From Candidatus Doudnabacteria bacterium (GTDB taxonomy: Bacteria; Patescibacteriota; Doudnabacteria; UBA920): 64,000 nt of DNA. Location of the stretch: NCBI GenBank assembly GCA_016788665.1, contig JAEUSF010000006.1, positions 4,401-68,400 on the forward strand, read 5' to 3'. Both the position numbers and the translations under genes were made by a program. Of this stretch, positions 5,700-35,555 are shown piece by piece (the first letter of the stretch is position 1; every line of letters begins with the position of its first letter). Under the pieces are notes generated by a model. That model ran no database searches, had not been told where the DNA came from, and was given only the letters and a program-made list of their open reading frames with translations.

Positions 5700-6230
5700 A
5701 TGCCTAAGTACAATATTGTTTCGCCCGAGAACCCCGACTGGTTTGTCAGGAGGGTAAACAGTCAACAGGCCGTTGTTAGGGCTAAGCTGCGGCTGGACGT
5801 GGAAACCGGAAATGTGGACTACGAGTTTCGCATGTACTACCTCTACCAAGGCAAGCTGTACGAAACTACGTTTGCCACCTGGGAGCAAAAGTCAGGTGGC
5901 CTGCCAGGTACGGCTACCACTTACTTTAACTTCCGCCAACCCAGCCACATCACACTGCCCGCCGCCGCAGAATTTGTTACCAACTTTTGGCAAGGCGTCC
6001 ATAACACACTATGGATGTACGACGCGGAAACTATTACCATCGACAACAAAGGACCGAACGGCTCCTACCGAGTACTCGAAGGCGAAGAGAAAAACCTTGT
6101 GCTTTCGAGCCTGCTAAGAGGGCTTGTGAACGAACTCCGACTGCTGCTGCACATGTCGGACAACGACATGCACAAGCATTGCTACCAATACGCAAAGCAG
6201 GTGGCCGAAAGCTGCCTTGCCAACCTCTAG
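5700..6230 (+). CDS. hypothetical protein, GC-rich foreign-looking gene (no signal peptide)
   Basis: 176-aa ORF with markedly higher GC than flanks, perfect SD and promoter; no recognisable domain. Confidence 0.6.
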   Translation: MPKYNIVSPENPDWFVRRVNSQQAVVRAKLRLDVETGNVDYEFRMYYLYQGKLYETTFATWEQKSGGLPGTATTYFNFRQPSHITLPAAAEFVTNFWQGVHNTLWMYDAETITIDNKGPNGSYRVLEGEEKNLVLSSLLRGLVNELRLLLHMSDNDMHKHCYQYAKQVAESCLANL

Positions 6231-7107: not shown

Positions 7108-7572
7108 TTAGTCCGTTAAGGACTCCACAATCCCGCCTATAACCGCTCCGCAAGCTTCCAAGGCCGCATCCACCGCTACCTCAAAAACTGTTTCAGCAAC
7201 AGCCCCAGCAAGGCTCCATCCGGCTTCGCCCAAATCGGTACCGGTTACGGTAGATGGGTTTACAACCGGCGCAACTGCCGGCAAGGCACTTAAGGCTTTA
7301 CCGACTGCCTTTTTCGGCAGTTTTTTTGCTACCCGAATTTTGAGACTTCCCTTCTTTTTTTGCAGGGTCCCCTCCTTTTCAGCAGTATTATATTTTAAAA
7401 CAGGGCTTTGTTCAAGCCTAATATAATTTAACAAATTCCAGTAAATAAAAAACCAAGACTTGTTTAAGTTCTTGGTAAAGAAATTTCCGACTCGAGTATC
7501 ACAAGCACCTTTTTCAGGTACTGGTGGTCTGGGTAGTCTGCCGACAACAGTTTCAGCAAAGGAGCCACCCAC
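7108..7572 (-). CDS. hypothetical Ala/Val/Gly-rich protein, GC-rich; true start unresolved
   Basis: Track ORF starts at GTG; an internal TATAAT plus AAGGAGGGG precedes an in-frame CTG at about 7360, with no ATG; overlaps the upstream ORF in another frame. Confidence 0.3.
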   Translation of the reverse strand: MGGSFAETVVGRLPRPPVPEKGACDTRVGNFFTKNLNKSWFFIYWNLLNYIRLEQSPVLKYNTAEKEGTLQKKKGSLKIRVAKKLPKKAVGKALSALPAVAPVVNPSTVTGTDLGEAGWSLAGAVAETVFEVAVDAALEACGAVIGGIVESLTD

Positions 7573-8039
7573 GGGTTCAGGCTTTCGGCCAGAATCTGAC
7601 GAAGGTCAGCTTCGTCCAGCATACAGCCCAGGACCGCCAAAGCAATAGCGGCCGCCTCGTCCAGGTCCGGACAGTAGCTTGCAACTGCCAGCGCAATGGG
7701 CGCACCGAGGTGCACAAAAAATATGCCGCCCGCCGGAGTGTATGCACAAAGGCTTGTACACTGATTTTGGTTCTCTGCAACTGCAGCTACCCTCCACTTT
7801 GCAGACCCGCTCCAGAGCTGGAGGTCGACGAAGGACCATTTACACTCTGGCGCCATTAAAAGCTCATTTAGCAATGGCGGAGCGTACTTCAACCGGTCCC
7901 TGCTTTCACCTCCGGCCGAAACAAGAGTTACGACGCATCCTCTAAAAGGCCTTTTGCGGCCTTCGTTGAATGCGTCGCCGGCTAGCGCCTTTATGACTGA
8001 GCGCGCGTAGTTCCGAGTTCTTCCAGAAAGGGACGCCAT
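7464..8039 (-). CDS. hypothetical protein, GC-rich foreign-looking gene
   Basis: 191-aa ORF with GGAGG 7 nt upstream of the ATG at 8039; no recognisable domain. Confidence 0.45.
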   Translation of the reverse strand: MASLSGRTRNYARSVIKALAGDAFNEGRKRPFRGCVVTLVSAGGESRDRLKYAPPLLNELLMAPECKWSFVDLQLWSGSAKWRVAAVAENQNQCTSLCAYTPAGGIFFVHLGAPIALAVASYCPDLDEAAAIALAVLGCMLDEADLRQILAESLNPWVAPLLKLLSADYPDHQYLKKVLVILESEISLPRT

Positions 8040-9988: not shown

Positions 9989-11053
9989 TTATTGCTGAAA
10001 GAGCCTTCGAGCCGTTTCAACTTTCTCCCTTAGGCCTTCAGTCTCCTTCTCTTTAGCTTGGAGCAAGCTGCGAAGATTTTCGTTCTCCTGAAGCAGATGA
10101 GTGACCTGTGCGAGCAGATTCTCCATTGCCTGCTGGGAATCTGCAGTTGCCTTTTTGGCTGCCGTTACAGCTTCGGCAAAAGCCGCCGAGGCACTTTGCG
10201 CGAGAACCTGTTCAATTGTCGGGGTGGATGGTTTCGCACCTTTTACCGACCGTGGCATACGAAGCTGAATTCCGCGGCTTTTTTCCAACGTTTTAATCCT
10301 GCCGTACAAACTTGCGTCCGAAATACTACTCCTATTAAACCCCATCGAACGGATTTCGCGGATAACATCCCGCTTGCTGCCCATGTGCCGGTCGTAAATG
10401 GAGCTCAACCCTGCTAAAACATCTTCGAGCCGGGGCCTGCTCATGACGGCAGGCTTCGGTCCCTCTGTTGTTGGTTGCCCGACGGATGTTTCCGGACTTA
10501 GCAAGGCCGGATGCGGTTGTTTTTCATGGGCTTGGTTCAGTCTTTTAGCCCCAGACTGATCAGCCATTGCTACGGTAACGGGCGCGGGTGTATGTTGAAG
10601 TTTCTCAGCATCAGGCTTAGGCAAGCCTACTGTCTTTGTGACCCCACCCAAACTTAAGCAGATGACACCTTTTTTGTCGCCTTGGAAAGATTCGACCATC
10701 CTATGCAAGAACGACGCAGCGTCAACCACCAACATTACGCAACCGGTCTTCTTACTACTAACCAATTTTTCAATGCTGGAAAGGATCTCGTCGCCAAGCC
10801 TCCCATTAACAGCAACAAACTTTGCGTTTGGCGAAAGCTGCGTTACATGCTTAGCCTGGTATACATTCCAGAAGACAACACGCCCATCAAGCTGGGCCTT
10901 GGACTTCTCTACCGCTGAATCATTTGCTCCGACTACTACCATATTTTCGCCGGGCTCGAGTCTGAATTCGAAGGACGTACCCTCGACTGCGGACGTTGCG
11001 ACAGCACTCATATACGTTCCTTGCAAAAAAGACACAAAGCCCGTAAAAGCCAT
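9989..11053 (-). CDS. hypothetical protein, possibly NYN/LabA-like nuclease domain with C-terminal coiled coil; GC-rich
   Basis: N-terminal MVVVGANDS...VMLVVDAASFLHRMV..GVICLSLGG loosely resembles the NYN fold; C-terminal heptad coiled coil; alternative start MSAVATS at 11011 has an AAGGA SD; terminator hairpin 9938-9965 on the minus strand. Confidence 0.4.
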   Translation of the reverse strand: MAFTGFVSFLQGTYMSAVATSAVEGTSFEFRLEPGENMVVVGANDSAVEKSKAQLDGRVVFWNVYQAKHVTQLSPNAKFVAVNGRLGDEILSSIEKLVSSKKTGCVMLVVDAASFLHRMVESFQGDKKGVICLSLGGVTKTVGLPKPDAEKLQHTPAPVTVAMADQSGAKRLNQAHEKQPHPALLSPETSVGQPTTEGPKPAVMSRPRLEDVLAGLSSIYDRHMGSKRDVIREIRSMGFNRSSISDASLYGRIKTLEKSRGIQLRMPRSVKGAKPSTPTIEQVLAQSASAAFAEAVTAAKKATADSQQAMENLLAQVTHLLQENENLRSLLQAKEKETEGLREKVETARRLFQQ

Positions 11054-25856: not shown

Positions 25857-26270
25857 CTACAGCAAGCAGTACCTGCCTTCTTCGTAGTGCTGTGGCGACA
25901 TGGTCAGAATTAGCTCCTTTACCACGCCGTCCTTACCCAGCATTCTAAATCGTGGGCCTTGGGCCTTTTTGTCGAGGACGACCGTAACCACCCTGGGTCT
26001 TACAGCAAAAGTCCTGAAGACTGGCTTTCTGTCCTTGTCAACAAACGCGAGCTGAAAATACAGCTCTGCTCCTTCGCGGATTATGTAGTCCCCGCAGCGC
26101 ACCTGCGACGGAGATAGCTTTGTTAAAACCGGCAGCTTAGCCGGAAAAAGGTCGAAGCCCTTTTCAAAGGCCTCAGAAATCACGGCATTGATCTTGCCCG
26201 TGACCTCGTCTATTTCCTGCTCCTGGCCAGCAAACGCAGCCAACACCAAGCACGCAATAAGCAACTGCAT
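25857..26270 (-). CDS. small secreted protein, GC-rich foreign-looking gene
   Basis: ATG at 26270 with AGGAGG 4 nt upstream; signal peptide MQLLIACLVLAAFAGQ; the 40-nt palindrome lies just upstream. Confidence 0.5.
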   Translation of the reverse strand: MQLLIACLVLAAFAGQEQEIDEVTGKINAVISEAFEKGFDLFPAKLPVLTKLSPSQVRCGDYIIREGAELYFQLAFVDKDRKPVFRTFAVRPRVVTVVLDKKAQGPRFRMLGKDGVVKELILTMSPQHYEEGRYCLL

Positions 26271-26338
26271 ACAGCCTCCTGGACAAAAGCCTACCACAAA
26301 CCTTACACCTAGGTCAAAAAAATTCAAATTCAAAAAAG

Positions 26339-26378
26339 GCAAAATACCTCAATACTAGCTAGTATTGAGGTATTTTGC
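26339..26378. repeat. 40-nt perfect palindrome GCAAAATACCTCAATACTAG|CTAGTATTGAGGTATTTTGC (copy 1)
   Basis: Read directly; the second copy at 35078-35117 matches at 39 of 40 positions. Confidence 0.9.
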
Positions 26379-26701: not shown

Positions 26702-26728
26702 TTGGGGTGTCGTCCCGACTAGCCGGGA
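26702..26728 (+). repeat. direct repeat copy L: tRNA-Gln 5' fragment (TTGGGGTGTCG) fused to the GTCCCGACTAGCCGGGA hairpin
   Basis: 11 nt identical to tRNA-Gln positions 27003-27013, followed by a near-palindrome; copy R at 27111-27145. Confidence 0.85.
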
Positions 26729-26744: not shown

Positions 26745-26983
26745 ATGTACACGACTTATATATTACAAAACCCTTTGGGAAAGCTTTATATAGGTTACTC
26801 CAGTAATCTTGATGTTCGGATTAGTTGGCATAATTCGGTAAATCAAAATTTACCAGAAATAAAGGTCCATGGAAGTTGTTTTATAGTAAAGAATTTCTGA
26901 CAAAATCTGAAGCTATCAAATACGAATATTATCTTAAATCTTTAAAAAGTCCGGAGTATATTAAAAAACTTATTGTGAAATAA
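26745..26983 (+). pseudogene. GIY-YIG nuclease gene with a 1-nt frameshift
   Basis: MYTTYILQNPLGKLYIGYSSNLDVRISWHNS then, after a single-base frame change at about 26833-26837, GKSKFTRNKGPWKLFYSKEFLTKSEAIKYEYYLKSLKSPEYIKKLIVK*; the joined product is a canonical about 80-aa GIY-YIG protein; AAGGAG SD at 26730. Confidence 0.75.
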
Positions 26984-27098
26984 TTTTTTCCTTTCACCTT
27001 CATTGGGGTGTCGCCAAGTGGTAAGGCAGGGGCCTTTGAAGCCCCCATTCGTAGGTTCGAATCCTACCACCCCAGCCAGGTGAAAGGAAAAAATTATT
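26979..27098. repeat. 20-bp perfect inverted repeat enclosing tRNA-Gln
   Basis: AATAATTTTTTCCTTTCACC (26979-26998) is the exact reverse complement of GGTGAAAGGAAAAAATTATT (27079-27098); the tRNA sits in the 80-nt loop. Confidence 0.9.
27004..27078 (+). tRNA. tRNA-Gln (anticodon UUG)
   Basis: Acceptor TGGGGTG/CACCCCA with U1-A72 as in bacterial tRNA-Gln, D arm GCC..GGC, anticodon stem GGGGC/GCCCC with loop CTTTGAA, T arm GTAGG-TTCGAAT-CCTAC, discriminator G, encoded CCA. Confidence 0.8.
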
Positions 27099-27110
27099 TT
27101 ATAATAGTAA

Positions 27111-27145
27111 GGTGTCGTCCCGACTAGTCGGGACCACCCCAGCCA
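27111..27145 (+). repeat. direct repeat copy R: GGTGTCG + perfect palindrome GTCCCGACTAGTCGGGAC + duplicated tRNA-Gln 3' end ACCACCCCAGCCA
   Basis: 13 nt identical to the tRNA 3' end (27066-27078); followed by terminator hairpin CACCAATAAACATTGGTG plus T8 (27154-27179). Confidence 0.85.
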
Positions 27146-27318
27146 AAAGAATTCACCAATAAACATTGGTGTTTTTTTTATGGTATAAATTATTTTGAAC
27201 CAAACTTTCAACACTTTCTAGGGGTGGACGTTTTTCTACATTTTTGCTAAAATACAAGGTCTCTTGTCAATGCTGCGGCAGTAGGAAGACTAGAGTGAAT
27301 GTAAAGGAGGTGAGAAGA

Positions 27319-27753
27319 ATGCAAAGTATTCGCGCGTTTGTACCGTGGACGTTTTTTAGAAAGCTGCATCCGTTCAATGCGGAGCTGCTGAAAAGCAACG
27401 CTATGCTTGTCAGAGCATGCGGCGCTAAACCCGCAGACGGCAGCATTTTACGGTCTAGGGGTTATTTGCTTTTTGGAAACGGAGTGGCCACACTCCTTCC
27501 TCAAGCAGAGACACTCGCACAAGGACTGAACGGCGTAAAAGGTTACGTTATGGAATTCGTCCAAAAGCGTGACCCTCGTAATGTCGCCTACTGGGAAGTC
27601 CAAATCTCAGTAGACCAGACGCGGGTCGAGCGGGATTGGAGAATTGAAGCGTCCTGCTTGCCGCCAGATTCGGACGAGGGCATCCACTTCACGCCCCTCG
27701 TCGAACAGCAAGGCAAACCCGGACAGTATTTCTACCTTACTTGCGTAGCTTAG
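27319..27753 (+). CDS. hypothetical protein, GC-rich (gene A of islet)
   Basis: ATG at 27319 with AAGGAGG at 27304-27310; 144 aa; no recognisable domain. Confidence 0.5.
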   Translation: MQSIRAFVPWTFFRKLHPFNAELLKSNAMLVRACGAKPADGSILRSRGYLLFGNGVATLLPQAETLAQGLNGVKGYVMEFVQKRDPRNVAYWEVQISVDQTRVERDWRIEASCLPPDSDEGIHFTPLVEQQGKPGQYFYLTCVA

Positions 27754-27868
27754 GGCGGACAGCAATGTTCGCTAAACCGTAACTTGGGGTTTGTTGTCCA
27801 AATGCGGCCACCTTGTGTGGCTTTCCATAATGTGACAAACCCTCCTTAACCCCAAAAGGAGATTTGTC

Positions 27869-28354
27869 GTGAGAAACTTAGTCTACGTATCCGGGGCATT
27901 GAGCGATGTCCCCTCGGCCATTCGGCCTCTGTACCTCGACTTTTACGAGTTGATCGGACGGAAAGTCGAGACTCTCGGACTTGCTTCATATGTCCCGCAC
28001 CTCAACACAGACCCGGTGCGGCACAAAAACGTAACTCCGAAACAGGTCGACCTCATCGACCGGACAGCAGTCACCTCAGCTATGCTGGTCGTAGCCGTGG
28101 CAGACAATCCGTCGCTCGGTGTCGGTATTGAGGTCGAGATGGCCTTCCATGCTAACAAGCCGGTTGTACTTCTCTGCCAACGAGAACGAATCGAGCAGCG
28201 GCTCATTAGCCGCCTAATCCGCGGCAACCCTGCAGTCATCCACGAGATTGTTTATGTGGATTTCGCCGATGCGCTCTCTTTACTTGAAACGTTCATTCTT
28301 TCATTCCTGAAAGAACAGGCGGAGAGTATTCTTCCAAAGACGCTCAAAGTCTAG
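27869..28354 (+). CDS. DNPH1/Rcl-like 2'-deoxynucleoside-5'-phosphate N-glycosidase family protein (nucleoside 2-deoxyribosyltransferase fold)
   Basis: GTG start with AAGGAG SD; VYVSGALSDV N-terminal phosphate-loop-like segment and VAVADNPSLGVGIEVEMAFHANKPVVLL..ISRLIRGN closely parallel the DNPH1 motif PSLGVGYELG..A..NK (recalled from memory, not searched). Confidence 0.6.
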   Translation: MRNLVYVSGALSDVPSAIRPLYLDFYELIGRKVETLGLASYVPHLNTDPVRHKNVTPKQVDLIDRTAVTSAMLVVAVADNPSLGVGIEVEMAFHANKPVVLLCQRERIEQRLISRLIRGNPAVIHEIVYVDFADALSLLETFILSFLKEQAESILPKTLKV

Positions 28355-28487
28355 CAATCAGGCGGTGTCGCATACAGCGATGCCGTTTTTTTTGGTAATA
28401 AATCCACGTCTCAGTTTAGCGTATTATAACTTTCTAAACTCGCCTAACACCCTAAGCTTCAAATAATTGTATATACAGCTAACACTG

Positions 28488-28540
28488 AGTAAAAATTAAA
28501 AAAACCGCGGGGCAGACTGGTTGGTCTGCTCCGCGGCTGG
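28488..28540 (-). terminator. rho-independent terminator for the secreted beta-helix-like gene
   Basis: CCGCGGAGCAGACC..GGTCTGCCCCGCGG hairpin followed by a U-run on the minus strand. Confidence 0.6.
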
Positions 28541-28551
28541 ATTACTTCTTG

Positions 28552-29808
28552 TTATTGGTTGCCGTACAGCTTCGCTTCACACTCCACCTTACCGGTAGAA
28601 GCCGCGTTGGTTTGCGCGGTAAACTTAACGGTAAAGCCGGTGTAAGTCTTGTTGCTAAACGACACCGAAGGCGCTGCGTAGCCTGCAAACTCCTGCACGC
28701 CACACCCCGACAGCGAGTAGTTGGCTACCCCCGGGAGAAAAGGCGTGAGGAAATTGACCACGTAGGTGCAGGTGGATCCTGCGACTGCCGCGGTCGTACA
28801 GTTACTCTGCGGGTCGGCGGCGGTAACCATACGCACGCTACTAAGTTTGGTTAGAACCCCGGTAGCCGTGCGTGTGTTGATGATGCTGCAATCCTTACAG
28901 GGCGTAACGCCGTCAGGACTTGAACCATTCGAGATGGTTGTGTTGTAAGCGGGAGTTTCCCCATTAGGACCCGCCGTATCTTCCGCAACAACGCCGCCAG
29001 CTCCGTTTCCGGAAGTCTGGACTCCATCCACAACGTGGTCAAGCCCTCGCAAACTCAGCCCCCTACTTCCATTCGTAACCCTGAGGCTGCGAAATGTGAA
29101 ATAGGTTGAACCCATAACGTAAGCACCGTAACCACTTCCGGAGAGGTTTATGTAACCTCCCCACACGTTTACGCGCACAAAGTTAGAGTTCGAAGACGGA
29201 TTTGATGGCACCGTTACCAACCCGTAGGTGAACACTCCGGTCCACACAACCTCGTGTAGGTCAATATCGCCGGTATAGCAAGGAGCGCTACCACCCTCCA
29301 CCGTGCAGAGCCCAGCAGGGCTCCAATAGGTATTCTTAAGCACCAAGCCATCGGTGCGGTAGCGGGTAGTATTTCTGTTCGCGAATATCACGTTCCGGAG
29401 TTTCGCCCGGATCATGTTGTCGAGCACCACAGCATTCGCAGTGTTACTGTTTGAGGTAGTCAAGTCGAAGATGATATCCTCGAACTGCACCCCGTAGGAA
29501 AACATGCCCGGAAAGCCCATTGTGAAGATGGTGCTGCAACCATTGCAGCTGAGCCTTACCATCCCGCCGTTCTTGGGCCGAAACCGCACAACCACCTCTG
29601 AGGGAATGGTATTCCAAAGCCCGACCGAGATTTTACAATCGGACTCGAACAGAACCTCGCCTCCCCCAGACAAGACAATCAGGGGGTAATTCTGTTGCAG
29701 CGACAACGACGCAGTACCATCTGCGCATGACGCTGCGGTTACCACGTAGCTTGTGGCAGCCTGTGTACTGGCTACGAGAGCCAGAAACAGGACAAGAAGT
29801 CTAAACAT
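28552..29808 (-). CDS. secreted Cys-containing Gly/Ser/Thr/Asn-rich protein, possible right-handed beta-helix; GC-rich
   Basis: ATG at 29808 with AAGGAGGAG SD; signal peptide MFRLLVLFLALVASTQA; repetitive N/G/S/T-rich segments typical of beta-helix adhesin/lyase folds; fold not proven. Confidence 0.55.
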   Translation of the reverse strand: MFRLLVLFLALVASTQAATSYVVTAASCADGTASLSLQQNYPLIVLSGGGEVLFESDCKISVGLWNTIPSEVVVRFRPKNGGMVRLSCNGCSTIFTMGFPGMFSYGVQFEDIIFDLTTSNSNTANAVVLDNMIRAKLRNVIFANRNTTRYRTDGLVLKNTYWSPAGLCTVEGGSAPCYTGDIDLHEVVWTGVFTYGLVTVPSNPSSNSNFVRVNVWGGYINLSGSGYGAYVMGSTYFTFRSLRVTNGSRGLSLRGLDHVVDGVQTSGNGAGGVVAEDTAGPNGETPAYNTTISNGSSPDGVTPCKDCSIINTRTATGVLTKLSSVRMVTAADPQSNCTTAAVAGSTCTYVVNFLTPFLPGVANYSLSGCGVQEFAGYAAPSVSFSNKTYTGFTVKFTAQTNAASTGKVECEAKLYGNQ

Positions 29809-30246
29809 TAACTCCTCCTTATGGGAGCTAGTGCCCGCACCTATAGCAAGGCGCAGATTTCCGAAATTATGACAGATTCCAGAGTGCACATTGAGGTCTC
29901 AGCGCAAATGACAAGCGCTTTATTTTGACCAGTGCCCGTTGGCACCTCTGTTGGCACAGAGGGTAATTATATTAAATATTCATTAAATTGTAAATAGTGC
30001 CCATATCCTAGCGGACAATTTACGCGAATTACCCACTAGGAAAATACTATAAATTAACTATACATGTAATAGCTTTTTAAAAGGTTGTTTGGTATTATTA
30101 CTAAAGTTAATAACAACTTTAGAATACCTTTTTAAACAAAAAATGTGTAATAAAATTACTAATGTAAAATAATTTTTAATATATTTATATTCTAAACATA
30201 AGCAAAACAATTTTATTTCATAATATACTTAGTTCAATACTCCCAT

Positions 30247-30636
30247 ATGACCAAAGACATAAAACAATACAATTCAAAACTAAAGGGCGAGGACAAAAAG
30301 ATTTGTAATATATTAGTAAAAGAAATATATGCAAATTTAAAAGAAGCGGAAAGCAAAGTCTGGCACGGGCATCCGGTGTGGTTTTTGGACGGAAACCCTA
30401 TAGTTGGCTACGGAAAGCTTAAGGCTTCAGTGCAATTGCTTTTCTGGAGCGGACAGACGTTTAAAGAAAAAGGGCTTAAGCCTGAAGGCAGTTTTAAAGC
30501 TGCCGAGGTACGCTATACTAAAGCAGAAGAAATAAGCACTACACACTTAACCAAGTGGTTAAAAAAAGCGAAAAAAATTCAATGGGATTATCAAAATATA
30601 GTCAAAAGAAAAGGTAAGCTAATTCGACTAAAATAA
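30247..30636 (+). CDS. DUF1801 (YdhG-like) domain protein
   Basis: ..VWHGHPVWFLDGNPIVGYGKLKASVQLLFWSGQTF.. matches the DUF1801 family; native AT-rich composition; bidirectional terminator 30643-30677. Confidence 0.6.
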   Translation: MTKDIKQYNSKLKGEDKKICNILVKEIYANLKEAESKVWHGHPVWFLDGNPIVGYGKLKASVQLLFWSGQTFKEKGLKPEGSFKAAEVRYTKAEEISTTHLTKWLKKAKKIQWDYQNIVKRKGKLIRLK

Positions 30637-30770
30637 CCTTGTTTACAAAACGCCTCTATGCCCATAGAGGCGTTTTGTATTTGTATGTATTAGCCTTCTA
30701 AATTTTTTTAGTTTATAATCTTAACATAGCGGGAAGTTGCCGCTCATCTTACCATGGTTCCAGGAGGACT

Positions 30771-31112
30771 ATGCTTCGCGCCAAAATCGCATTGGCCGCA
30801 ATGGCGGCCATGTCACTTGGTCTCTCAGCTCCCGCTGTTGAGACAACCCCCGAGCTCATTCCCGAGCTCGGAAAACAACAGCCCAAGTTCGCACCCGCTA
30901 CGGTCGAAGACGATACGGTCTGCGCCGTCGCCTACCAAGACGGCCCCAACCAAATTTTGGCACGTGAAAAAGACGTGCCGAAAGGGGCGAAGATTGTGGC
31001 AGTGTACACGGCCACAAAAAAAGAGTGCGCGCGCCTGGGACGACTCCCAAGCGTCAAAGCGCAAAAACGGGGTACGGTCATTCACTTTACAGCCCCCGCC
31101 CAGCCAAAGTAG
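30771..31112 (+). CDS. small secreted protein, GC-rich
   Basis: AGGAGG 5 nt upstream; signal peptide MLRAKIALAAMAAMSLGLSAPA; own terminator 31112-31137. Confidence 0.55.
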   Translation: MLRAKIALAAMAAMSLGLSAPAVETTPELIPELGKQQPKFAPATVEDDTVCAVAYQDGPNQILAREKDVPKGAKIVAVYTATKKECARLGRLPSVKAQKRGTVIHFTAPAQPK

Positions 31113-31195
31113 AGCACCTTGCTCTACTATTTTTTTGACCCTTTTTGTTTTTCTATTTATAATTCTCACACCAAGTTTAAGCCAGAGGAGGCCGA

Positions 31196-31612
31196 ATGCT
31201 GAGAATTCTGATTGTTCTATATTTCCTTTCTTGGGGCACATTCGAAGCCGCTGTGTGGCACCAAGAAGAAGTGGCGTCCGTAAAAACCCAAGGCCAAACC
31301 AAAAGCAAAGTGATCTTCCCCAGAGTCACGCTCGGAGAAAACTACCAAAGCGAAGTCGCTGTTATAAACACTTCACAAGCTGTTGGCTCATGTAGCCTGT
31401 CGGAGTACAGCCCAGAGCTATCACGGGTAGTGCGGGTAAGCCACACGCCAGTCATTGGCCCAGGAAAGCAGTTTAGTCTTCGGCTTGTGCCTGTCAAAAG
31501 CTTACAAAAGGCGTACATTGTAATAATTGCCAATTGTAACTTTGCAAGCACGGGCGTGCTCACAACGACTAACCTTCAAAAAAAACTCGCCACTGTAGAA
31601 CTGGCCTACTAA
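31196..31612 (+). CDS. small secreted protein, GC-rich (paralog pair with 31696)
   Basis: TTGACC-17-TATAAT promoter at about 31127-31155, GAGGAGG SD, signal peptide; shares the FP..x..S..N....C motif with the next gene. Confidence 0.55.
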   Translation: MLRILIVLYFLSWGTFEAAVWHQEEVASVKTQGQTKSKVIFPRVTLGENYQSEVAVINTSQAVGSCSLSEYSPELSRVVRVSHTPVIGPGKQFSLRLVPVKSLQKAYIVIIANCNFASTGVLTTTNLQKKLATVELAY

Positions 31613-31695
31613 AAGCACCTAAAGTTTCGGGTGCTTATTTTATTGACGAAAATGCTTTTATAAAGTAAGCTTTCAAGTTAACAAGGAGAGACGAA

Positions 31696-32124
31696 ATGAA
31701 GAAAGTAACAGGACTGTTTTGGGTCCTATTTTGGCTCTTTCTAATGACCAATGTTGTGGGTTTCTTGCGGAGCAACCTGTCTGAGTACACCGTGGTCAGA
31801 AAAAACTCAAAGAAAAAACGGGTTAAACTGGTATTTCCGAGCCTTAGCCAGGCGGAAAGCTACATGTCTACAATATGGCTCACCAACTACGGCAGAGCCA
31901 CCGCAAAGTGCCAAACGGACTACTACCTGGCCCACGGAAACGGGGAAAGATACTGGAGAGTGACCTCTACAATCTCCCCCCACTTCACCCACGTAGAGCC
32001 TCCTCCAGGCTATTCCGCCAAACAAACCGAGTACTCGGCCGTTTCTACGTGCGATGCCGGAGTTAGAGGCTACGCCATAGTCTACGGACCCAGTGGCGCC
32101 GTAGCTCTGTACGACGCCAAATAG
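31696..32124 (+). CDS. small secreted protein, GC-rich (paralog of 31196)
   Basis: AAGGAGAG SD, signal peptide MKKVTGLFWVLFWLFLMTNVVG; LVFPSLSQAESYMSTIWLTNYGRATAKC aligns with VIFPRVTLGENYQSEVAVINTSQAVGSC of the previous gene. Confidence 0.55.
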   Translation: MKKVTGLFWVLFWLFLMTNVVGFLRSNLSEYTVVRKNSKKKRVKLVFPSLSQAESYMSTIWLTNYGRATAKCQTDYYLAHGNGERYWRVTSTISPHFTHVEPPPGYSAKQTEYSAVSTCDAGVRGYAIVYGPSGAVALYDAK

Positions 32125-32215
32125 ACCGCCCCACCAAAGCAGATTTCTCTGCTTTTTTTATTTTTCCCAAATTATATAAAGTGCTATAATTAAGCATTAT
32201 TAAACATAAAATTTC

Positions 32216-33307
32216 ATGATAATTGTAGGCTTCCTTAGCTTTGTCCAGCTAACCCTGTTTTTCGGACATTTCATAGTGTATAAAACTTTTGTTAAATTTT
32301 TTCAAATTACCCATCCACAAAATCTTTTATACACACGCTTGGTTTTCCTTTTGCTTTCTATAAGTTTTTTGGTAGCCTCTGCACTTGCTTACAAGTTTTA
32401 TGGCAGTTTTGGCCGCACAGCATACGCCAGCGCAGCGGTATGGCTTGGAACTTTGTATTGGTTAGTCTGGGCAAGCCTTTTTGCCTGGATACTCTATTTC
32501 CTTCTCCCCCACTCCATCTCGCTCAAACTTGGTCAAAGTTTGTTTATTTTAGCCTTGTTAGTCAGCGCCTACGGTGTTTGGAATTCTTACCAAACCAAAG
32601 TTAAACATATAACCATCACAATTCCTAACTTACCATCTGAATGGCAGGGTAAAAAAGCAGTCCTTGTTTCCGACACTCACTTAGGCAACGTAAGAAGCTT
32701 AAATTTTTCAAAGCGGATAGCTGAACTAGTTAGCGCTCAAAATCCGGACATAGTATTGGTGCCTGGTGATTTTTACGACGGACCTCCCGCTAATTACGAG
32801 GAACTTGCCGAGCCTTTCGGAAAAATAAAATCGACCTATGGTGTTTATTTTGCTGCCGGCAACCACGAGGAGTTTGGCGATGCGGGACCTTTGTTGTCAG
32901 CCATAGCTAAATCCGGTGTTAAAGTTTTAAACAACCAAATAGAAAACGTAAATGGCCTGCAAATTATTGGAGTAGGTTACGGAGCCACTGTAAATAAGAC
33001 TTCGGAAAAAAGTATATTAGACGGATTAAACATAAACCGCGACCTTCCCAGCATCCTTCTTAAACATGCGCCTACGAACATAGAAACCGCAGAAGCTGCC
33101 GGAATCTCCCTGCAAGTTTCCGGACATACCCATTTAGGCCAAGTTTACCCGTTTAGATATTTAACTAAAAAAATCTACGGAAAGTTCCACTATGGAGCTT
33201 CGGCTTTAAACAACACGCAGGTCGTAACCACCAGTGGAGTCGGCACTTGGGGCCCGCCGCAAAGAGTCGGCACCAATTCAGAAATAGTTGTTATAACTTT
33301 TAGGTAA
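32216..33307 (+). CDS. membrane-anchored metallophosphoesterase (calcineurin-like)
   Basis: N-terminal TM helices; VSDTHLG, GDFYDG, GNHE, GHTHLGQ metallophosphatase motifs. Confidence 0.85.
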   Translation: MIIVGFLSFVQLTLFFGHFIVYKTFVKFFQITHPQNLLYTRLVFLLLSISFLVASALAYKFYGSFGRTAYASAAVWLGTLYWLVWASLFAWILYFLLPHSISLKLGQSLFILALLVSAYGVWNSYQTKVKHITITIPNLPSEWQGKKAVLVSDTHLGNVRSLNFSKRIAELVSAQNPDIVLVPGDFYDGPPANYEELAEPFGKIKSTYGVYFAAGNHEEFGDAGPLLSAIAKSGVKVLNNQIENVNGLQIIGVGYGATVNKTSEKSILDGLNINRDLPSILLKHAPTNIETAEAAGISLQVSGHTHLGQVYPFRYLTKKIYGKFHYGASALNNTQVVTTSGVGTWGPPQRVGTNSEIVVITFR

Positions 33308-34182: not shown

Positions 34183-34315
34183 ATTAAACGAGTAATACAA
34201 ACCAAATAGCCGCTTACCAATCTTCCCTGGGAAGATTTTTTATTTAATTACTTCTTAAGTTTTTTTAGCTATGGTGTACTTAGTCAATAAAATTTTAAAC
34301 TAATTGCACAAACTT

Positions 34316-35035
34316 ATGCCACAAAATTACAAGAAAGACTTAAGTCCGCCCAAAAAAACACTAACCCAACAACAGCTCGAACTTATTCGTAATACCGTAG
34401 CCAAAGGTGCCACGCCTGACGAGCTAAAACTGTTTTTAATAGTAGCCAACAGAGCCGGTCTCGACCCTTTTACAAGACAAATACACTTTGTAAAGAGGGG
34501 TGGCAGAGCCACAGTACAGACTGGTATAGACGGCTATAGAGCCATAGCAGAAAGAAGCGGGAGCCTGGCGGGCATAGAAGACGCATTATACGACGCCGAA
34601 GACCAAGTCCACCCGAACAAAGCCACGGTGACAGTTTATAGAATGGTGAGTGGGCAAAGAGTTCCGTTTAGTGCTTCTGCCAGATGGGATGAATACGTGC
34701 CCCAAAGCGGACAAGACTTTATGTGGCGGAAAATGCCCTACTTTATGCTCGGTAAAGTTGCGGAAGCATTAGCTTTAAGAAAAGCATTCCCAAACGACTT
34801 AAGCGGACTTTACATTCACGAGGAAATGCAACGTGACGACAACAGTACGGAAAATGATTCAGAAGCGCTAATAAATCACAACAGCACCTCTCAAGAAAAA
34901 GAAAGTTCTTTAGACCCCACATTAACTGCCGCAAAAGATTACTCAAAAAAATTCTGGTCCCGCGCCGAACAACAAACACCTGCCTCAGAAAAACAAGCGC
35001 CTGTTTACCAAAAAGAAGCACTAGACGAGCCCTAA
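34316..35035 (+). CDS. recT: RecT/Bet-family phage single-strand annealing recombinase
   Basis: LTQQQLELIRNTVAKGATPDELKLFLIVANRAGLDPFTRQIHFVKRGGRATVQTGIDGYRAIAERSG is a textbook RecT (PF03837) core; track start is TTG, ATG at 34316. Confidence 0.8.
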   Translation: MPQNYKKDLSPPKKTLTQQQLELIRNTVAKGATPDELKLFLIVANRAGLDPFTRQIHFVKRGGRATVQTGIDGYRAIAERSGSLAGIEDALYDAEDQVHPNKATVTVYRMVSGQRVPFSASARWDEYVPQSGQDFMWRKMPYFMLGKVAEALALRKAFPNDLSGLYIHEEMQRDDNSTENDSEALINHNSTSQEKESSLDPTLTAAKDYSKKFWSRAEQQTPASEKQAPVYQKEALDEP

Positions 35036-35177: not shown

Positions 35178-35555
35178 ATGCTTGTACTTCTAGCACTGGT
35201 CACGACGATTTTCGCCGCTGAACCCACGCAAAAAAATCTAGACGCGAGTCCAGGCTTCGTCTGGGGCTACATAGCCCGCGAAGTTAGTTGGATAACGCGG
35301 TCAGAAAGCGGGTACCTGGAACTCGTTCGTGCAGACTTGGTCTGCACCGACAAAACCGAGCGGCGCTGTGCTGCTCTTAGGCAGTACCTTATTCCACTGC
35401 CGAAGACCAACTACATGATATTTACGAAAAAGGACTTCCCACTGGGAAGTCCGAAACAACCCCGCGACGAAAACCCTGCGAGGTTAGTAAGTCCGGGGGT
35501 TGTAATCCCCCTGCTTCAAAAGCTCCAACAAGAGCCCGGGCATTCTAATCAATAG
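35178..35555 (+). CDS. small secreted protein, GC-rich
   Basis: AAGGAGG SD, signal peptide MLVLLALVTTIFAAEP; terminator hairpin about 35528-35578. Confidence 0.55.
   Translation: MLVLLALVTTIFAAEPTQKNLDASPGFVWGYIAREVSWITRSESGYLELVRADLVCTDKTERRCAALRQYLIPLPKTNYMIFTKKDFPLGSPKQPRDENPARLVSPGVVIPLLQKLQQEPGHSNQ

Follow-up and report, generated by a model that had tools for sequence, protein, structure and literature searches.

A laterally spread gene cassette of Patescibacteria joins an orphan protein, a candidate RNA switch and a DNPH1-like enzyme

Patescibacteria lack nucleotide synthesis of their own and live on the nucleotides of host cells, and to our knowledge the policing and regulation of this salvaged pool are largely unknown. 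In Bacillus, the pyr operon under PyrR-type control opens with the regulator gene and has RNA control sites both in its leader and between cistrons; PyrR is a basic, phosphoribosyltransferase-related protein that acts by transcription attenuation. Among riboswitches, we know of only one class that senses a deoxynucleoside, the 2'-deoxyguanosine riboswitch. BlsM, BcmB and MilB are bacterial CMP or hydroxymethyl-CMP N-glycosidases of nucleoside-antibiotic pathways and act on pyrimidine nucleotides. In humans, DNPH1 (2'-deoxynucleoside 5'-phosphate N-hydrolase) cleanses the nucleotide pool of 5-hydroxymethyl-dUMP (PMC10603095). A nucleotide-metabolism enzyme can also stand beside a structured RNA as a restrained toxin, as with the effectors of type II retrons that resemble nucleoside 2-deoxyribosyltransferases (NDTs; PMC7736814) and the type III toxin–antitoxin system AvcID (PMC10511110). 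Here we describe a cassette in which two genes, A and B, flank a structured RNA. It lies in a 64,000-nucleotide stretch of DNA from a Candidatus Doudnabacteria bacterium (assembly GCA_016788665.1, contig JAEUSF010000006.1, positions 4,401 to 68,400 of the forward strand), which we call the window and whose first letter is position 1.

The conserved unit spans approximately positions 27225–28393 (about 1.17 kb), with all of its parts on the forward strand. A consensus scan predicted a sigma-70-like promoter at 27225–27253 (TGGACG, a 17-nt spacer and a TG-extended TAAAAT), which is followed by a 5' leader (27254–27318) with a UUCG/UGCG-loop hairpin and the ribosome-binding site AAGGAGGTGA (27304–27313). 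Gene A (27319–27753) starts with ATG and encodes 144 amino acids. After a spacer of 115 nt (27754–27868), which holds most of a structured RNA (27785–27874) that runs into the start of the next gene, gene B (27869–28354) starts with GTG, has AAGGAG 5' of this start and encodes 161 amino acids. An intrinsic terminator, a 12-pair stem and then a T-run, was predicted by a scan directly after the B stop codon (28360–28393). Multiple alignment of the closest cassettes showed DNA similarity from promoter to terminator only, with unrelated sequence outside on both sides: homology between cassettes with unrelated flanks started at the promoter and stopped at an equivalent hairpin and T-run that lies directly after B in every other locus. 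The GC content of the A–B pair was 52–55% in every locus, whatever that of the surrounding contig (41–51%). Because similarity is bounded by promoter and terminator and composition is independent of the contig, we regard the unit as a self-contained cassette that has moved between genomes. The leader hairpin (approximately 27258–27318) was kept in the closest cassettes and not in more distant ones; in its stem, one pair read from the alignment had changed on both sides and still paired (GGC/GCC to GTC/GAC).

The two genes proved to be strictly linked. A search of a collection of 5.8 billion proteins returned 21 homologues of A and 96 of B, and a profile search with A among 1.84 billion cluster representatives gave 30 matches, two of which, the long P0142 and P0143, were discarded as spurious, repetitive sequences. 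On contigs fetched around B homologues, a 144-aa gene homologous to A lay directly upstream, and A was followed by B 110–140 nt downstream in all 19 other recovered loci of the A clade, with the recovered A–B loci coming from Saccharibacteria, Adlerbacteria, Kerfeldbacteria and metagenomes. A tblastn survey found A upstream at every close-B locus (at least 68% identity) that had upstream DNA, and when A was the query, all seven of the metagenome loci retrieved had B 116–139 nt downstream. Even one very remote A homologue, with a profile E of 6.6e-4, still has a B homologue (38% identity) 103 nt downstream. When open reading frames (ORFs) were clustered across 15 loci, A and B were the sole common genes, the other clusters being out-of-frame shadows of the two. 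We consider the cassette boundaries, the A–RNA–B linkage and the lateral spread among Patescibacteria to be close to certain. An earlier note on this DNA, made from the sequence alone, had suggested that A and a DNPH1-like gene could be an undescribed two-gene system. The pair does recur in other genomes, and this part of its account stands; it had missed the structured RNA that is conserved between the two genes, the promoter and terminator that belong to the cassette and the mosaic variation of A.

Nothing that would explain how the cassette moves, be it an integrase, a transposase or terminal repeats, was found; a tyrosine recombinase adjoins it in one locus, L013. A phage or plasmid origin is unsupported, as no relatives of A or B occur among IMG/VR viral contigs, INPHARED phages or PLSDB plasmids. 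Searches of A and B against PADLOC and PHROGs gave nothing meaningful, with PADLOC also matching none of their homologues, and literature searches returned no description of the cassette, the spacer RNA or the Nostocales operon described below.

Gene B very likely encodes an enzyme of the Rossmann-like alpha/beta fold of NDT and DNPH1 with an intact catalytic triad, to judge from profiles, alignments and a structure model. A profile built from 46 members of the B family matched rat Rcl (1e-8), BlsM (2e-8), the CMP N-glycosidase BcmB (4e-8), human DNPH1 (about 1e-7), an NDT (8e-7) and MilB (1e-4), and many close homologues carry a precomputed match to the Pfam family Nuc_deoxyrib_tr (PF05014). 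With the AF2 model of B (predicted local distance difference test score 93.5), the best Foldseek match in the PDB was human DNPH1 (E = 1.6e-7, TM 0.70–0.81), followed by a cyanobacterial NDT and BcmB. Three residues that are invariant in all 46 sequences were aligned by HMMER to the catalytic Tyr/Asp/Glu of Rcl/DNPH1: Y6 with the Tyr of VYFCGS, D64 with the catalytic Asp and E88 with the catalytic Glu of GVGYELG. The Ser that contacts the phosphate in the SAMIRG segment, and that in DNPH1-type enzymes is contributed by the neighbouring subunit, aligns with S114, which is nearly invariant, as are R115, R118 and G119; the family also has an additional invariant motif, Y-x-P-H-x-x-x-D-P. The profile matches, the structural match and the aligned catalytic residues thus bear out the earlier assignment of B to the DNPH1/NDT fold. 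We place B closest to the branch of nucleoside monophosphate (NMP) and deoxynucleoside monophosphate (dNMP) N-glycosidases, as a new subfamily of a known superfamily.

More than half of the B homologues (55 of the 96) are 57–94% identical to B and about 160–170 aa long, and most of these come from Patescibacteria. Several homologues (P0033, P0043 and P0086) are named 'XRE family transcriptional regulator' by NCBI and UniRef. No helix-turn-helix domain was detectable in the proteins so named, and the name looks like a propagated misannotation.

Four contexts, three of them gene neighbourhoods and one a gene fusion, independently link A and B with the metabolism of thymidylate and pyrimidine dNMPs. 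First, B homologues of Nostocales cyanobacteria (~40% identity) belong to a conserved operon in which a ThyA-like/pterin-binding gene, a DCD-like gene, B and a dCMP deaminase gene follow one another. Second, the distant A homologue P0140 (L047, 130–4588) heads an operon of Tmk-like, dCMP deaminase, ThyX, AAA_17/18 kinase and dUTPase/DCD genes, and a Tmk-like gene likewise follows the A homologue P0141 (L045). Third, the cassette of an Adlerbacteria genome (L012) lies between glyA-dut and thyA. Fourth, in one database protein (P0095) a B-like region is fused to dCMP-deaminase domains. On the strength of these thymidylate-pathway links we favour a part in nucleotide-pool metabolism over that of a nucleotide-depleting effector. 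B probably, though by no means surely, acts on a pyrimidine (deoxy)nucleoside monophosphate in the control or cleansing of the pool.

Some further details of these operons deserve mention. The Nostocales operon was seen in L018 (1481–5059) and L024 (1292–5039); its ThyA-like enzyme carries PterinBD-DUF4346, its DCD-like protein has a hydrophobic C-terminus, and the operon resembles MilA/MilB-type hydroxymethyl-pyrimidine chemistry. In the L047 operon, the ThyX protein is long (430 aa), an RNA element of the same type as in the cassette follows the A-like gene, and a complete dTTP route lies under one leader.

Even among loci with proteins of 45–70% identity, the spacer between A and B keeps both its sequence and its architecture. 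Read 5' to 3', it starts with a G-rich strand. Two UCCCUAAUG-like elements come next, one on each side of a short GC hairpin, and are followed by a 6-nt strand, an anti-Shine–Dalgarno (anti-SD) sequence CCCUCCUU, a loop, the Shine–Dalgarno (SD) sequence (AAGGAGG) and, at the start codon, the complement of the 6-nt strand. In the window, where the element is supported by alignment statistics, a covariance model and folding, these parts correspond to the 5' strand of a helix P1 (27786–27796), repeat 1 (UCCAAAUG, 27797–27804), the hairpin P2 (27806–27822), repeat 2 (UCCAUAAUG, 27824–27832), the switch strand GACAAA with the anti-SD (27834–27847), the SD AAGGAG (27856–27861) and the 3' strand UUUGUC (27863–27868), which abuts the GUG start codon at 27869. 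The 6-nt strand and its complement read GACGAU/AUCGUC, or GACAAA/UUUGUC in the window (27834–27839 and 27863–27868).

RNAalifold predicted a hairpin that sequesters the SD. In an alignment of 15 loci, 90.6% of cells could pair compared with 82.4% after shuffling (none of 500 shuffles reached the observed value), and slid partners gave at most 65%. The outer helix of the sequestor was 97.8% paired, including a U-A to A-U exchange in five sequences. Changes on both sides were found for 14 pairs, with part of the apparent covariation in the SD/anti-SD helix being due to alignment shifts. A covariance model found the held-out loci L010 and L011 at E = 5.7e-9, scored the Tmk-type locus L047 weakly (E = 0.06), missed L045 and detected no second copy in the 64-kb window. 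In this alignment, the spacer RNA has the conserved, covarying structure expected of a riboswitch, and a hairpin that occludes the SD upstream of B is likely.

The Tmk-type spacers (L045 and L047) could not be aligned with the others by MAFFT. By reading and folding the sequences, we recognized the architecture of two repeats, hairpin and sequestor in both loci, which have the Tmk-like gene downstream, and in the distant L046. The RNA element follows A whether the downstream gene is B or a Tmk-like kinase. Rfam 15 yielded no family at E values up to 10 in the window and up to 5 in five other loci, and a loose regular-expression search for more repeat-hairpin-repeat copies gave only chance-like matches outside the spacers.

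Folding also revealed an alternative state. When the SD and the 3' strand were held unpaired, 17 of 18 sequences formed P1, a helix within which the two repeats and the small hairpin lie; here the 5' strand pairs with the 6-nt strand together with the Cs at the start of the anti-SD (in the window, 27786–27796 with 27833–27842). P1 also forms in the divergent L045, L046 and L047, with different sequences (UGCCAU/GUGGCA and AGCUG/CAGCU). Shuffling of the 5' strand weakened the alternative state (combined p = 2e-6 over 13 loci), and the sequestered state was the more stable of the two by 4.6–15 kcal/mol. According to these models, the spacer is built like a translational switch whose default position is off. 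That the second conformation would switch translation on is, in our estimate, an even bet.

Gene A, which the earlier note had read as lacking any recognizable domain, indeed matched nothing in Pfam, NCBIfam, PADLOC or PHROG, and no fold match to any enzyme or known family was obtained. NCBI calls a product of 116 aa; we prefer the 144-aa start, which AAGGAGGTGA precedes, because the additional N-terminus is conserved among homologues. The product is cytoplasmic and mostly beta and belongs to a tiny orphan family; conservation within the family is good over the N-terminal 60 residues, and the rest of the protein varies. Only F52, G55, W92, L127 and Q136 never vary among 33 sequences, a pattern more in keeping with a binding or structural role than with catalysis. 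In three loci (L048 477–1863, L049 349–1735 and L051 856–1329), a lone distant A-like gene is followed by a terminator and then by a promoter for an RND efflux operon; in the first two of these it is divergent from a gene of the Exo_endo_phos family (ExoIII/AP-endonuclease superfamily).

A striking mosaic was apparent in loci L001, L002 and L003. Their B proteins are 100% identical (DNA 91–100% identical per 60-nt window), their A proteins only 52–70% identical (DNA 51–83%), and identity returns to 69–91% in the promoter-leader region and in the 3' half of the spacer. With divergent A genes standing between conserved flanks and beside an identical B, alleles of A have evidently been exchanged between conserved anchors, as read from these sequences. 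The pattern hints at selection on the partner gene A. A diversity-generating retroelement or a retron was considered and rejected: a reverse transcriptase gene (RVT_1) occurs only in L006 and L007, about 5 kb away from the cassette, and is not conserved elsewhere, and the window holds neither a template-repeat copy of A nor a reverse transcriptase or msr/msd RNA near the cassette. As for the function of A, we tentatively suggest, at less than even odds, that it either triggers the RNA switch or partners the enzyme encoded downstream.

The explanation that we prefer, with a probability of about 0.55, combines a mobile cassette, gating of B by a switch and a role of B in the pyrimidine-nucleotide pool. 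In this explanation, an autonomous cassette of promoter, leader, A, structured RNA, B and terminator has spread laterally among Patescibacteria. B would be an N-glycosidase of the DNPH1/BlsM type, most likely hydrolysing a pyrimidine (deoxy)nucleoside 5'-monophosphate to the free base and (deoxy)ribose 5-phosphate, and may serve in an organism of scavenged nucleotides to control or cleanse a pool related to dUMP, dCMP or dTMP. By default, B would be poorly translated, with the SD and the bases adjacent to the start codon locked in the conserved hairpin. The upstream strand could instead pair with the 5' half of this hairpin and the start of the anti-SD, which would free the ribosome-binding site and close a domain presenting the two conserved UCCCUAAUG loops around the small hairpin, and a ligand or a protein may stabilize this alternative state. 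A, always 5' of the RNA and seemingly non-enzymatic, would probably be a regulatory or protein partner of the downstream nucleotide enzyme. A bolder version, which we find conceivable and on balance doubtful, holds that the spacer represents a new class of regulatory RNA specific to Patescibacteria: either an orphan riboswitch whose ligand is a pyrimidine deoxynucleotide or a metabolite of the thymidylate cycle, or an RNA targeted by A, itself a new kind of small sensor-regulator. Such an RNA would turn on the translation of dNMP-handling enzymes (DNPH1-like, or Tmk-like together with a dTTP operon), with A alleles recombining within the RNA and promoter anchors.

Several observations weigh against the gated pool enzyme. 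As a single sequence, B matched PF05014 with E = 4e-4 and 20.9 bits, under the gathering score of 28.8, and its N-terminal loop reads SGAL(S/T)D (SGALSD in the window) in place of the DNPH1 phosphate loop GSIRGG; given this sub-threshold score and the differing loop, the substrate could instead be a nucleoside or some other compound. P1 is weak and not favoured in L001, L002 and L038, which are close relatives. With a median pI of 6.1, proteins of the A family are slightly acidic, which is unfavourable to RNA binding, and some distant A homologues stand alone before a terminator, with no RNA element. At most loci, the cassette lies among unrelated genes and not among nucleotide genes. Finally, foreign composition, mobility and a hypervariable A are traits commoner in conflict systems than in housekeeping metabolism.

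The last of these points leads to the main rival, a toxin–antitoxin or abortive-infection system in which B would be a nucleotide-depleting toxin restrained by the RNA hairpin and by A, as an antitoxin or infection sensor, with the variability of A reflecting an arms race with phages. Such a system would fit an autonomous cassette of 52–55% GC among unrelated flanks in hosts of 40–51%, an upstream gene that is made first and an occluded ribosome-binding site for the putative toxin; it also has precedents in the NDT-like effectors of retrons (PMC7736814) and in AvcID, which pairs a dCMP-deaminase toxin with an RNA antitoxin (PMC10511110). What keeps it alive is mainly the mosaic of A, in which three cassettes combine a 100% identical B with A proteins only 52–70% identical, but the same mosaic cuts the other way: an antitoxin specific to B should co-vary with B, not diverge by 30–48% beside an identical one. 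Moreover, no similarity to a known toxin, antitoxin or defence family emerged (PADLOC for A, B and their homologues; Pfam and NCBIfam for A), A and B are absent from the viral, phage and plasmid collections named above, and the neighbours of the cassette are not defence genes. Homologues of A head what appears to be a housekeeping operon for dTTP synthesis, and the L012 cassette lies within glyA-dut-thyA. We found no evidence in these sequences for the cassette as a defence system and consider this rival unlikely.

Less likely still is a two-enzyme pathway, in which A and B would catalyse consecutive steps on a modified pyrimidine nucleotide, in the manner of MilA and MilB, and the spacer would be an attenuator that only sets their ratio. 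BlsM, BcmB and MilB, which come from such pathways, are among the closest solved relatives of B, and the Nostocales B homologues neighbour a ThyA-like enzyme as MilB does MilA. However, the five residues that never vary among the 33 A sequences make no plausible catalytic set, A has no fold match to any enzyme, and its extreme divergence beside an identical B is ill-suited to a fixed catalytic partner.

The cassette lies at one end of a GC-rich patch (approximately 27.2–32.1 kb) that the earlier note had taken as a single islet beside a tRNA-Gln gene. All of the features that it had listed, including the ORFs, the composition and a repeat of the tRNA end, were located where it had placed them. 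The GC content of the patch is 0.47–0.52 (0.49–0.52 at 27–30 kb) compared with 0.34–0.44 over most of the window. At the third codon position (GC3), gene A reaches 0.55, gene B 0.61, the gene of a 418-aa protein 0.62 and three small genes (30771, 31196 and 31696) 0.61, 0.50 and 0.62, respectively, compared with 0.30–0.42 in clearly native genes of the window; because the increase sits in the third position, it is compositional, beyond mere amino-acid usage. A DUF1801 gene embedded within the patch has the native value (0.36). The islet did not hold up as one unit, since A and B alone recur in other loci and the 418-aa protein is an ORFan, and GC3-rich orphan genes occur in other parts of the window too. 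Foreign-looking genes of this kind are scattered through the window, and the patch is their largest cluster, not a unique island. Further GC3-rich ORFs (0.52–0.66) without a Pfam match, some with signal-peptide-like N-termini, stand among genes of native composition at 5700–6230, 7464–8039, 9989–11053, 25857–26342 and 35178–35555. A RecT-family single-strand annealing protein is encoded at 34304–35035 (Pfam E = 1.8e-30), 2 kb 3' of the patch. NCBI holds records for two proteins of the window (JNN11_03760 and JNN11_03770). Exact-sequence look-ups of B, of the 116-aa version of A and of the phosphoesterase at 32216 returned no record, so no related genome with an empty site was available to set island borders.

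The tRNA-Gln(ttg) gene (27004–27078, forward strand), called by both ARAGORN and Rfam, neighbours the cassette and is not part of it; a terminator-like site (27154–27171) lies between the two. The last 12 nt of the tRNA, CCACCCCAGCCA, are repeated at 27134–27145 (0.18 chance matches expected). This duplication would suit integration at the tRNA, but it is the sole copy of the tRNA 3' end in the window, only 56 nt past the tRNA and with no counterpart at the distal border, and no ORF between 27.2 and 32.2 kb encodes an integrase; evidence for a tRNA-integrated genomic island was not found. That the whole patch is one island integrated at tRNA-Gln, bringing secreted effectors together with A and B, is accordingly very improbable: the shared rise in GC3 of A, B, the 418-aa gene and the three small genes, the position next to a tRNA with a duplicated 3' end and the RecT gene 2 kb beyond would all suit it, but the patch has no integrase, its 12-nt repeat is in the wrong place, a gene of native composition (DUF1801) breaks it up, A and B recur alone in a context that differs each time and similar GC3-rich orphan genes are scattered across the window.

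The surroundings of the tRNA have some unusual features of their own. A tRNA-Gln-derived mini-element is present in two copies with a 23-nt core found twice (0 chance matches expected). One copy (26703–26728) consists of the first 10 nt of the tRNA (TGGGGTGTCG) and the hairpin TCCCGACTAGCCGGGA; the other (27111–27145) consists of GGTGTCG, the same hairpin and the tRNA 3' end, and could fold as an acceptor-stem-like minihelix. The tRNA is bracketed exactly by a 29-nt inverted repeat (26971–26999 and 27078–27106, 93% complementary) and is thus placed at the tip of a long potential stem. A GIY-YIG (UPF0213-like) gene at 26746–26993 is seemingly frameshifted near 26850–26865: its N-terminal half lies in one frame (Pfam GIY-YIG, E = 3.4e-6), and the expected C-terminal half (KGPWKLFYSKEFLTKSEAIKYEYYLKSLKS...), read by eye, lies in another frame and ends just 5' of the tRNA. 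Either a pseudogene or a mistake in the assembly could account for this.

The remaining genes of the patch lie outside the conserved cassette, and ORF clustering found none of them near A–B in other loci. The gene of the 418-aa protein (28552–29808, reverse strand) is convergent with B. Its product, which the earlier note had put down as beta-helix-like, starts with MFRLLVLFLALVASTQA, a signal-peptide-like N-terminus, has no Pfam match and finds only itself (JNN11_03770) among the 5.8 billion proteins. The DUF1801 gene (30247–30636, forward strand) matches its Pfam family at E = 1.5e-7 and 32.1 bits, above the cut-off; the match confirms the family, and the composition agrees with the earlier view of the gene as native. 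The three small genes (30771–31112, 31196–31612 and 31696–32124, all on the forward strand) encode products with hydrophobic N-termini; each has its own terminator-like hairpin after the stop codon, and a promoter-like site lies 5' of the second. The products of the second and third were said to share an FP..S..N..C motif and do so within a weak similarity (26% identity over 42 aa, pairwise E = 9e-6), and pairwise comparison showed the first to be unrelated to the third. Apart from the native gene, these encode unrelated orphan, putatively secreted proteins.

If the gated cassette is as we propose, it would offer three entry points to nucleotide control in Patescibacteria. B would be a bacterial counterpart of the human nucleotide-pool sanitizer DNPH1, with clear catalytic residues; the spacer is a compact element, not in Rfam, that is predicted to gate the translation of deoxynucleotide enzymes; and A is an orphan protein of no recognizable fold that always accompanies the cassette RNA. 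The mosaic of a near-identical enzyme gene and a partner diverged by 30–48% between conserved flanks is unusual for a metabolic operon. Even a conservative reading leaves a new, widely transferred regulatory cassette in a phylum with few characterized mechanisms of gene control.

Among the systems with which we opened, DNPH1/Rcl is the best structural match of B. The PSLGVG-x-E motif, the Tyr/Asp/Glu triad and the Ser of S-x-x-I-R-G align, and the association of B with thymidylate genes suits a role in the dNMP pool. Identity is only about 21–25%, however, and besides its sub-threshold Pfam score and altered phosphate loop, B has the invariant Y-x-P-H-x-x-x-D-P motif, a partner gene and an RNA element, all of which DNPH1 lacks. 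BlsM, BcmB and MilB belong to the same superfamily with comparable profile scores, and the partnership of MilB with a ThyA-like hydroxymethylase is echoed by the Nostocales operon of B, but no antibiotic-biosynthesis genes lie near the Patescibacteria cassette.

On the regulatory side, the cassette resembles the pyr operon in its small first gene, followed by an intercistronic RNA with mutually exclusive predicted pairings and then by a gene of pyrimidine metabolism. A, by contrast, is a slightly acidic beta protein with no relation to PyrR, and the RNA of the cassette would act by occluding a ribosome-binding site. Translational ON riboswitches share with the spacer a conserved domain closed by P1 and, as predicted here, a P1 3' strand in common with the SD-sequestering hairpin, and one of them, the 2'-deoxyguanosine riboswitch, shares its association with deoxynucleotide metabolism genes. 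In contrast to such riboswitches, the spacer RNA matches nothing in Rfam and lies between two genes, always after A, instead of in a 5' leader. Type II retrons and AvcID also combine a nucleotide-metabolism enzyme, there as a tightly restrained toxin, with a structured RNA; unlike them, the cassette has no adjacent reverse transcriptase or msr/msd, no tandem-repeat RNA antitoxin and no PADLOC match. As a whole, with its orphan partner of mosaic descent, a gating RNA outside Rfam and an autonomous promoter and terminator, the cassette is without a described counterpart in the libraries and literature searched, and its principles are each known from other systems: ribosome-binding sites that are occluded, operons that begin with their regulator and cassettes that move laterally.

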